From a virus (lineage: Duplodnaviria; Caudoviricetes), in IMG/VR virus record IMGVR_UViG_3300024346_000005: a stretch of DNA of 64,000 nt; one strand, written 5' to 3'. The number at the start of each line of letters is the position of its first letter. The first letter of the stretch is position 1. The notes below the pieces were generated by a model. That model had not been told where the DNA came from. It worked only from the letters and a program-made list of their open reading frames with translations, and ran no database searches. A program made the translations under genes and the position numbers. This document shows, piece after piece, positions 48,128 through 49,781 of the stretch.

Positions 48128-48156
48128 TTGACAACCCGCCCCAGATGCCCTATAAT
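48128..48156 (+). promoter_or_regulatory. Consensus sigma70-type promoter
   Basis: TTGACA 48128-33, 17 nt, TATAAT 48151-56. Confidence 0.85.
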
Positions 48157-48371: not shown

Positions 48372-48554
48372 ATGGAAAAGTTTACGGTAGAAGAATTTCA
48401 ATCAGACTTTGATAATCTACTAGAAAGAGTGGAAAATGGAGAGTCTTTTATTGTTACTAGCGAACACGGAGATGCTATGATGATTCCTTATAGTCAATAC
48501 AAAGAAGCAGACGACCTCATACGAATACACACCGACCACGAAGAAGGTTGTTGA
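48372..48554 (+). CDS. Phd/YefM antitoxin-like small protein
   Basis: FTVEEFQSDFDNLLERVENGESFIVT..HG.AMMIP matches the Phd/YefM N-terminal pattern (F..L...V..GE...IT..G...V..P). Confidence 0.55.
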   Translation: MEKFTVEEFQSDFDNLLERVENGESFIVTSEHGDAMMIPYSQYKEADDLIRIHTDHEEGC

Positions 48555-48602
48555 GTCAAGGCAACTTATAGGTCTTATATGTTGCTTCAAGGCAACTTTT
48601 AT

Positions 48603-48675
48603 GGGCGGATAATTTAATTGGTCAAAATGCTCTGCTTATAACGGAGTTATGAGGGATCATGGCCCTCTCTGCCTA
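48603..48675 (+). tRNA. tRNA-Ile(UAU), no encoded CCA, atypical T-loop
   Basis: Acceptor GGGCGGA/TCTGCCT, D stem ATTT/AAAT, anticodon stem CTCTG/CGGAG with loop CT-TAT-AA, T stem GAGGG/CCCTC with loop ATCATGG. Confidence 0.8.
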
Positions 48676-48718
48676 TTGACCATAATGACTCTTTGAGTTA
48701 TAATGGTCTCATACACAA

Positions 48719-48800
48719 GCCCCCTTGGCGTAATTGGTAGCCGCTACGGATTTAAAATCCGTTGACTTTAGTCGTGCCGGATCGTACCCGGCAGGGGGTA
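48719..48800 (+). tRNA. tRNA-Leu(UAA), long variable arm, no encoded CCA, atypical T-loop
   Basis: Acceptor GCCCCCT/AGGGGGT, anticodon stem ACGGA/TCCGT with loop TT-TAA-AA, variable arm GAC-TTTA-GTC, T stem GCCGG/CCGGC with loop ATCGTAC. Confidence 0.85.
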
Positions 48801-48832
48801 TTGAAATAAATATAAGATATTGAGATACTCAA

Positions 48833-49235: not shown

Positions 49236-49781
49236 ATGAATAATTATTACACTTATGCATATTTGCGTGAAGATGGAACACCATATTATATCGGTAAAGG
49301 TAAAGCAGGTAGAATTAATAATACCTTACACACTATTCATCTTCCAGTAAAAGAAGAAAGAAGAATATTCTTAAAGAAAAATCTTACCGATGAAGAAGCA
49401 AGGAAGCACGAGATTTATATGATTGCTGTTTTAGGTAGAAAAGATTTAGGAACAGGAATTTTAAGAAATATGACCGATGGTGGGGAAGGTTGTGCCGGTC
49501 GTGTTTTAAGTGAAGAAACAAAAAAGAAGTTGAGTGATAGTCATAAAGGAAGAAAGAAAAGTGAGGCACACCGAAAAGCATTAAGTGAGGCGGCGAAGAA
49601 AAGAAAAGCAAGTGAAGAAACAAGAGAAAAAATGAGTAAAGTTTTTATGGGAGAAAATAATCCGTCTTTTGGGAAAAAGTGGTGGAATAATGGTGTAGAA
49701 AATAAACTCTGTAAAGAATGTCCCGGTGAAGAATATGTTTTAGGATTTCTGAACAAGTATTGGATGAATAAACATAAATAA
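49236..49781 (+). mobile_element. Free-standing GIY-YIG-family homing endonuclease with NUMOD3 repeats
   Basis: YYTYAYLREDGTPYYIGKG...E...I...GR...G.L.N.TDGGEG, then LSEETKKKLS and SEETREKMS. TATAAATA at 49205-12. Confidence 0.82.

Follow-up and report, generated by a model that had tools for sequence, protein, structure and literature searches.

Two tRNA genes of a marine cyanophage carry an exchanged 54/58 T-loop pair that probably marks a recurrent alternative T-loop class

Two tRNA genes of an uncultured marine cyanophage carry T-loops in which the bases at positions 54 and 58 are exchanged, with A54 and U58 in the places of U54 and A58. We hold with good confidence that both genes encode working elongator tRNAs in which the swapped pair is compensated, and that they belong to a recurrent alternative class of T-loop. 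The U54-A58 pair counts as all but universal in tRNA structure, and modification enzymes that are among the most highly conserved act on U54, U55, and A58. In the canonical loop, T54-Psi55-C56-R57-A58-N59-Y60, this pair is of the trans Watson-Crick/Hoogsteen type, and by the Leontis-Westhof rules A54-U58 is not isosteric with U54-A58 upon exchange. An in vivo selection by Zagryadskaya et al. in 2003 reportedly recovered U-A, G-A, and G-G at 54-58, not A-U. In the literature we found no description and no structure of an A54/U58 tRNA class.

Results

The window, by which we mean the whole 64-kb stretch of DNA that was analysed, derives from a T4-like phage whose closest cultured relative is Synechococcus phage S-SRM01 (Kyanoviridae) and which was detected in at least 22 marine metagenome (DNA) runs. 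ARAGORN and Rfam RF00005 concordantly identify two tRNA genes in it, both on the plus strand, both covering model positions 1-71 of 71, and both above the RF00005 gathering score of 29. A 73-nt tRNA-Ile(UAU) occupies 48603-48675 (51.1 bits; anticodon 48637-48639), and an 82-nt type II tRNA-Leu(UAA) occupies 48719-48800 (45.3 bits; anticodon 48753-48755). Each has G1-U72 and A73, and neither encodes CCA. The ARAGORN start of tRNA-Ile at 48602 takes in one base too many and was set aside for the Rfam register, in which G1 (48603), U8, and A14 are canonical. U8, A14, G18-G19, U33, and G53-C61 are present in both tRNAs. An earlier reading, made from the sequence alone, had called all stems intact; the Rfam alignment and the minimum-free-energy fold, which contains the acceptor, anticodon, and T stems of both tRNAs, agree with it. 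The AU-only D-stem of tRNA-Ile is not predicted from energy alone. The tRNA-Leu has a 13-nt variable region with a 3-bp stem which, together with A73, places it among bacterial type II tRNA-Leu. Read from its sequence, tRNA-Ile has A73, C4-G69, U12-A23, C29-G41, A37, and A38, which we take to be the E. coli IleRS identity set outside position 34.

The window is AT-rich (37.7% G+C), and over 41 window ORFs 22.6% of Ile codons are AUA and 27.5% of Leu codons are UUA. These shares fit the usual job of phage tRNAs, the supply of A/U-ending codons, and the two tRNAs would provide AUA and UUA decoding to an AT-rich phage. A sigma-70-type promoter on the plus strand (TTGACC-17-TATAAT, 11/12; 48676-48704) begins directly after tRNA-Ile and ends 14 nt before G1 of tRNA-Leu. 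It is kept in all syntenic relatives, whichever tRNA body comes next. Contigs of two RNA libraries, with small shares, cover the tRNA-Leu gene, although such contigs cannot reveal transcripts, ends, or CCA. The tRNA-Ile gene has no promoter of its own and lies behind a terminator-like hairpin followed by TTTTAT (48581-48596, plus strand), 6 nt upstream of the gene. Because of this its transcription route is one that we infer: read-through likely comes from a consensus promoter (TTGACA-17-TATAAT, 12/12; 48128-48156, plus strand) upstream of a DUF7294 ORF and a Phd-like ORF. The hairpin belongs to an 18-nt imperfect direct repeat (GTTGNNTCAAGGCAACTT), the copies of which (48550-48567 and 48581-48598) form two small hairpins, the second being the terminator-like one.

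The T-loop of tRNA-Ile (48656-48662, plus strand) reads A54 U55 C56 A57 U58 G59 G60 within the T-arm GAGGG-AUCAUGG-CCCUC, and that of tRNA-Leu (48781-48787, plus strand) reads A54 U55 C56 G57 U58 A59 C60 within GCCGG-AUCGUAC-CCGGC. These assignments, made in the Rfam register, are exactly the loops (ATCATGG and ATCGTAC) and the A54/U58 exchange that the sequence-only reading had reported. Neither gene has U54/A58, and both have U55, C56, and a purine at 57. At position 60, where the canonical base is a pyrimidine, tRNA-Leu has C and tRNA-Ile has G. Both genes show the full profile of the A54/U58 class (A54, U58, U55-C56, a base other than U at 60, G53-C61, and GG in the D-loop), the tRNA-Ile loop with A57, G59, and G60 being a rare subtype of it. 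Their U55 and G18-G19 set them apart from a G55 elbow variant, A54-G55-C56-R57-U58 with an altered position 18.

Much of the canonical bacterial and phage T-arm is thus retained: the 7-nt loop, the 5-bp stem, G53-C61, U55, C56, the purine at 57, G18-G19, the cloverleaf, and the length. What differs is that 54 and 58 are exchanged, that the class never has U60, and that two modifications are impossible, since A54 precludes m5U54 and U58 precludes m1A58 by chemistry. The earlier proposal that the elbow is kept while the T-arm is altered holds, in that G18, G19, U55, C56, and R57 are all in the sequence. As we picture the class, A54, U55, C56, mostly G57, U58, and never U60 would retain the loop-closing pair with its bases exchanged. 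The elbow contacts would be ordinary, with G18-U55, G19-C56, stacking of purine 57, and G53-C61. Because these contacts are unchanged, the L-shape, and hence processing, charging, and use by the ribosome, should persist. What would be lost is whatever reads U54 or A58, that is, m5U54, m1A58, and proteins that need U54-U55-C56.

A partial parallel exists in eukaryotes, where two published reports describe A54-A58 T-loops in initiator tRNA-Met and cytosolic tRNA-Ala (PMC7912444; PMC7566577). There, as in the window genes, a functional tRNA has A54 instead of U54 and its loop is still closed. However, they keep A58, often as m1A58, in a purine-purine pair, whereas both window tRNAs have U58. Among viral-contig tRNAs, A54/A58 is four times rarer than A54/U58 (5 versus 20).

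These counts come from a survey of viral (IMG/VR) tRNAs gathered by seeds that are independent of the T-loop, namely one D-arm 18-mer and two anticodon arms. T-loops were taken from ARAGORN structure strings, giving 1,022 unique tRNAs with 7-nt loops. U54/A58 was found in 993 and A54/U58 in 20 (2%), along with 5 A54/A58, 1 U54/U58, and 3 other combinations. Positions 54 and 58 co-vary strongly (Fisher, 2e-36), with ∼0.5 A54/U58 loops expected under independence. Position 60 is a third co-varying site: U60 occurs in 0/20 variant loops and in 796/993 (80%) canonical ones (2e-14). G57 is present in 19 of the 20 A54/U58 loops. Among the first 680 tRNAs of the census, which include 19 of the 20 variants, the variants have G53-C61 in 19/19 cases and the D-loop GG in 18/19, and they span at least 10 isotypes.

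The variant is present in 13/240 loci of the whole pool, and multi-tRNA loci that contain it carry variant and canonical tRNAs side by side (1-5 variants in 7-28 tRNAs). It is clustered in some phages, as in L098 with 5 of its 18 tRNAs. In a cyanophage-rich subset A54/U58 accounts for 1/346, so two swapped tRNAs out of two are unusual for a cyanophage. The exact 17-nt tRNA-Leu T-arm recurs on 12 diverse viral contigs, in 12 tRNAs that represent five isotypes (Thr, Ala, Gly, Ile, and Leu), 12 of its 17 viral matches lying inside tRNAs. When each window tRNA was compared with cultured phages by BLAST, only weak partial matches were returned. One of these leads is the tRNA-Met(CAU) of Aeromonas phage AVP1 (L291:5694-5769), which has the T-loop AUCAUAC and an encoded CCA. 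AVP1 is a cultured jumbo phage and thus a usable experimental model for the A54/U58 class.

A54-U58 with a base other than U at 60 may simply be a second workable closure of the T-loop, reached rarely through a deleterious single change and then kept, since reversal would also take two hits. Its higher frequency in phages would follow from the fast evolution of phage tRNAs and from a looser hold on them by modification and quality-control systems. We find this neutral account plausible but less likely than not; the following facts suit it as well as they suit nuclease evasion. Single-change loops are rarer than double ones (6 versus 20). The variant has turned up in at least 10 isotypes on many contigs that are not related, sits together with canonical tRNAs in one cluster, and occurs in a chromosomal bacterial gene described below. 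The tight consensus (AUCGU, with no U60) and the exact T-arm common to unrelated tRNAs fit less well, as they suggest a defined optimum and perhaps a reader. The clustering in some phages and the very large viral enrichment (∼300-fold, a rough value) also speak against it.

That enrichment was gauged against cellular genomes. Among the 120 matches listed there for a 15-nt T-arm core, one lies in a tRNA and 119 are chance matches. A bacterial pattern lacking stem positions was dropped because it was swamped by coding-sequence matches. A stricter pattern, which took account of the stem and required a trailing CCA, matched 24 times in 401 Pseudomonadota genomes; 23 of these matches are not tRNAs and one is real. 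By comparison, the canonical twin pattern gave 7.8 matches per genome in five genomes, or ∼3,100 when extrapolated to 401, and in the viral sample patterns without the trailing N8-CCA gave 12 variant versus 101 canonical matches. Matched in this way, the viral enrichment is ∼300-fold, a figure as rough as the bacterial baseline beneath it, which covers one phylum, depends on a CCA-containing pattern, and takes its denominator from five genomes. The real bacterial case is a chromosomal tRNA-Lys(UUU) (L353:1454-1528, genome G230) flanked by gyrA and an ABC transporter; it encodes its CCA, and its T-arm reads GTGGG-ATCGTAC-CCCAC. Thus, A54/U58 is strongly enriched in phages and not exclusive to them, and the bacterial case shows that the variant works outside phages too. 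The single cellular tRNA match of the 15-mer lies on a 5-kb contig of a 'Micrarchaeota' MAG (L215 / L346), in an array where seven or more unusual tRNAs are densely packed, two of which have A54/U58. This array looks like a phage tRNA cluster that was mis-binned into an archaeal MAG.

Orthologues of the window genes show that the swapped loops are maintained. The tRNA-Ile gene is identical in six metagenome contigs retrieved by a metagenome scan with its T-arm; the exact T-arm had 0 matches in IMG/VR, and the variant-loop tRNA-Ile is known only from near relatives (at least 82% identity). In two of these six contigs (L533 and L537), identity to the window is only 82% in the upstream flank and 71% in the downstream one, whereas tRNA-Ile is conserved at 73/73 positions and tRNA-Leu at 78/82, with an unchanged T-arm. 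The four tRNA-Leu differences consist of a compensatory flip of A31-U39 to U-A, a change at position 32, and one variable-loop base. In two further relatives outside that set (L016 and L314), flanks of ∼70% identity enclose a tRNA-Leu of 96-99% identity in which, within the T-loop, only position 59 varies. A fifth tRNA-Leu orthologue is found in L541. Such a pattern is what purifying selection on a functional RNA leaves behind. Random T-loop decay, looked for in these orthologues, did not appear, and the view that the double change is compensatory is upheld from three sides: 54 and 58 co-vary, single changes are rare, and diverged orthologues retain the loop. In L541 (955-1036), a 98.8%-identical relative, tRNA-Leu carries A38 to C (UUUAACA), a population variant at a normally conserved position.

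It is in this light that we regard as highly improbable the reading in which the genes are in decay, or have a role other than that of translation adaptors, for example as tRNA-like processing signals or regulatory RNAs. The lack of an encoded CCA, the G1-U72 atop both acceptor stems, and the terminator-like hairpin before tRNA-Ile would suit such a reading. However, G1-U72 was called in 11% of viral-contig tRNAs, so its presence in both window tRNAs is not special. Working adaptors are supported by complete cloverleaves that score over the Rfam threshold, by an Ile identity set with no element missing, by 95-100% conservation of the genes versus 71-82% in the flanks, by the compensatory stem change and the conserved promoter, and by anticodons that match abundant phage codons.

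An Ile(UAU) gene with an anticodon arm (17 nt) identical to that of the window gene, G1-U72, and A73 is present on at least 110 IMG/VR contigs, always with a canonical T-loop, which places the window gene, as a diverged member, in a widespread cyanophage family. Three of these contigs, with related cyanophage Ile(UAU) genes, have the same T-stem around a canonical loop (GAGGG-TTCAATT-CCCTC), from which the window loop departs at positions 54, 58, 59, and 60. A cultured example of the canonical-loop family is cyanophage S-TIM5. In S-TIM5 (NC_019516) and S-SRM01 (NC_070963), which share with the window either the slot or the Phd-like neighbour, a module of Ile(UAU), Met(CAU), and Leu(UAA) stands behind a Phd-like ORF. 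These modules and the window have in common the identical 17-nt Ile(UAU) anticodon arm and G1-U72/A73, and the S-SRM01 group also has the same promoter spacer before its Leu gene. In contrast, S-TIM5 and S-SRM01 tRNAs have canonical TTCRA loops, and the window has no Met gene and a Leu body that bears no relation to the type I 'Leu(UAA)' (73 nt) found in the S-SRM01 group. No tRNA is present in G001, the nearest virus record; L019, a close relative in IMG/VR with conserved synteny, in which the adjoining 208-aa ORF is 99% identical, likewise showed no tRNA and gave no BLAST match outside that ORF.

At the Leu(UAA) slot (window 48712-48804), three unrelated bodies with the same anticodon occur in phages that are otherwise 80-99% identical. 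The first is the A54/U58 type II gene of the window, L541, L533, L537, L016, and L314. The second is a type II gene with the loop UCCGAGU (C55) in L506 (191-274) and L549 (1497-1580). The third is a 76-nt type I gene with a canonical loop, accompanied by an HNH-like ORF, in L539 (1671-1746); S-SRM01, L032, L047, and L048 have 73-nt genes of a similar kind. The breakpoints coincide with the edges of the tRNA gene, and flanks and promoter spacer are conserved up to those edges. Unrelated bodies behind one promoter suggest a cassette-like mobility of phage tRNA genes, in which homing endonucleases probably take part. A homing-endonuclease gene with NUMOD3 motifs (putative GIY-YIG type; PF07460, E = 3.3e-15) lies downstream in the window at 49236-49781 (plus strand). 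It comes and goes among relatives, being skipped in some run contigs and absent in L032, L047, L048, and L314, and S-SRM01 has an HNH gene between its tRNAs. The variant Leu allele occurs with and without the NUMOD3 gene, so there is no strict linkage between the two. Endonuclease-driven co-conversion is the likely mechanism of the body exchange.

The same setting raises the prospect that the swap acts at the level of DNA. Homing endonucleases encoded next to phage tRNA genes may read conserved tRNA-gene DNA such as the GGTTCGAATCC box. In that case an allele linked to the endonuclease gene would have to withstand cutting, with TTCGA changed to ATCGT, and the tRNA body would be co-converted together with that gene. 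Endonuclease genes flank the slot in every lineage examined (NUMOD3 in the window, HNH in S-SRM01, HNH-like in L539), the breakpoints sit at tRNA gene edges with the promoter spacer retained, and T4 SegB, which we take to be a GIY-YIG enzyme of the T4 tRNA cluster that drives inheritance of that region, would offer a precedent. Yet the variant Leu gene is found with the NUMOD3 gene (window, L533, and L537) and without it (L314), and canonical alleles also adjoin endonuclease genes (S-SRM01 and L539). Moreover, immunity of this kind accounts for cassette exchange better than for the co-variation of 54, 58, and 60, which is an RNA-level signature. We consider it unlikely as the reason for the swap.

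Discussion

The observations above indicate that a natural exchange of the 54-58 pair is both recurrent and selected, and thus that the tRNA elbow has a second workable design. What the window contributes is evidence from orthologues, which include a compensatory change in a stem, the low frequency of the swap among cyanophage tRNAs, a three-allele Leu(UAA) slot beside endonuclease genes, and a link to the T-loop nuclease described in 2026. Swapped tRNAs are also ready-made substrates for probing the roles of m5U54, Psi55, and m1A58.

A working tRNA with a compensated pair, which is the reading we favor, is compatible with positive selection by host defence, which would come in addition to it. 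The sequence-only reading had suggested evasion of host tRNA-targeting nucleases or of dependence on host modification. Azam et al. in 2024 reportedly showed by experiment that phage tRNAs escape anticodon-loop nucleases through sequence changes. There the change lies at the site in the anticodon loop that the nuclease reads, whereas in the window it lies in the T-loop. Nucleases acting at the T-loop have been described. CbCash, a type III CRISPR-associated Schlafen nuclease reported in 2026, cuts tRNA 5' of U55 and targets UUC; single changes at U54 or at U55 block it, and its authors leave phage tRNAs open (PMC13462974). The cut made by CdiA-CT E479 falls between T and Psi, the conserved bases at 54/55 (PMC9086364). 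The idea of evasion is therefore concrete and testable, since nucleases cutting at 54/55 exist and one of them requires U54. A direct test is possible with the window genes, because U54-requiring T-loop nucleases have now been described, with no answer given on what happens to phage tRNAs.

Under such selection, the swap would remove the U54-U55-C56 motif so that phage tRNAs outlast the cut host tRNAs; a variant of the idea is that the swap confers independence from the host enzymes for m5U54 and m1A58. We regard selection of this kind as plausible but less likely than not, and slightly less likely than the neutral account. The dependence of CbCash on U54 and U55 (PMC13462974) and the 54/55 cleavage by E479 (PMC9086364) lend it substance, as does the strong enrichment of the variant in viral contigs over cellular genomes. 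Three unrelated Leu(UAA) bodies with one anticodon are what diversifying pressure on the tRNA body would produce. Finally, the tRNA module adjoins an orphan 60-aa Phd/YefM-like antitoxin ORF (48372-48554, plus strand; PF02604, E = 7.7e-6, at 26 bits below the 29.8 cut-off), which also lies just upstream of the module in cyanophage S-TIM5 (L289 2803-2967). No toxin gene is visible near it, and it may be a counter-defence gene directed against toxin-antitoxin systems. On the other side, variant and canonical tRNAs share clusters (1-5 of 7-28 per locus), so protection would be partial. The variant is also rare in the cyanophage-rich sample, a chromosomal bacterial tRNA-Lys has the swap in a housekeeping context, and no T-loop nuclease is tied to the host of the window phage.

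A more ambitious proposal would join these threads. A54/U58 with no U60 might hide phage tRNAs from 54/55-cutting nucleases of the Cash-type Schlafen and E479 kinds, and the Leu(UAA) slot might be an arms-race hot spot in which same-anticodon bodies are swapped by endonuclease-driven conversion, keeping UUA decoding going under host attack. We offer this conjunction as a speculation that is rather unlikely to hold in full.

Several smaller observations concern tRNA elbows and bodies in related phages. One gene in L048 (6809-6880; CAU anticodon, 40.8 bits in Rfam) has the T-loop AGCAUAA with A54, G55, and U58. A co-variation of A18 with G55 was not confirmed there because the D-loop register is ambiguous (A18 or G18). 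ARAGORN missed this G55 relative, and standard tRNA finders thus under-count such genes. UCCGA T-loops, with C55 for U55, the pseudouridine site, recur as well: besides the two slot genes in L506 and L549, they occur in L003, L005, L010, and L011, and the viral-contig tRNAs that have them are Leu, Asn, Asp, and Gln. Lastly, phages of the S-SRM01 type carry an 'Ile(UAU)' gene of 90 nt that has a long variable arm and a 'Leu(UAA)' gene of 73 nt that lacks one, the reverse of the normal look of these isotypes; genes of this reversed look are found in S-SRM01 (L001, 3174-3263 and 3835-3907), L047 (6730-6818), and L048 (6308-6397).
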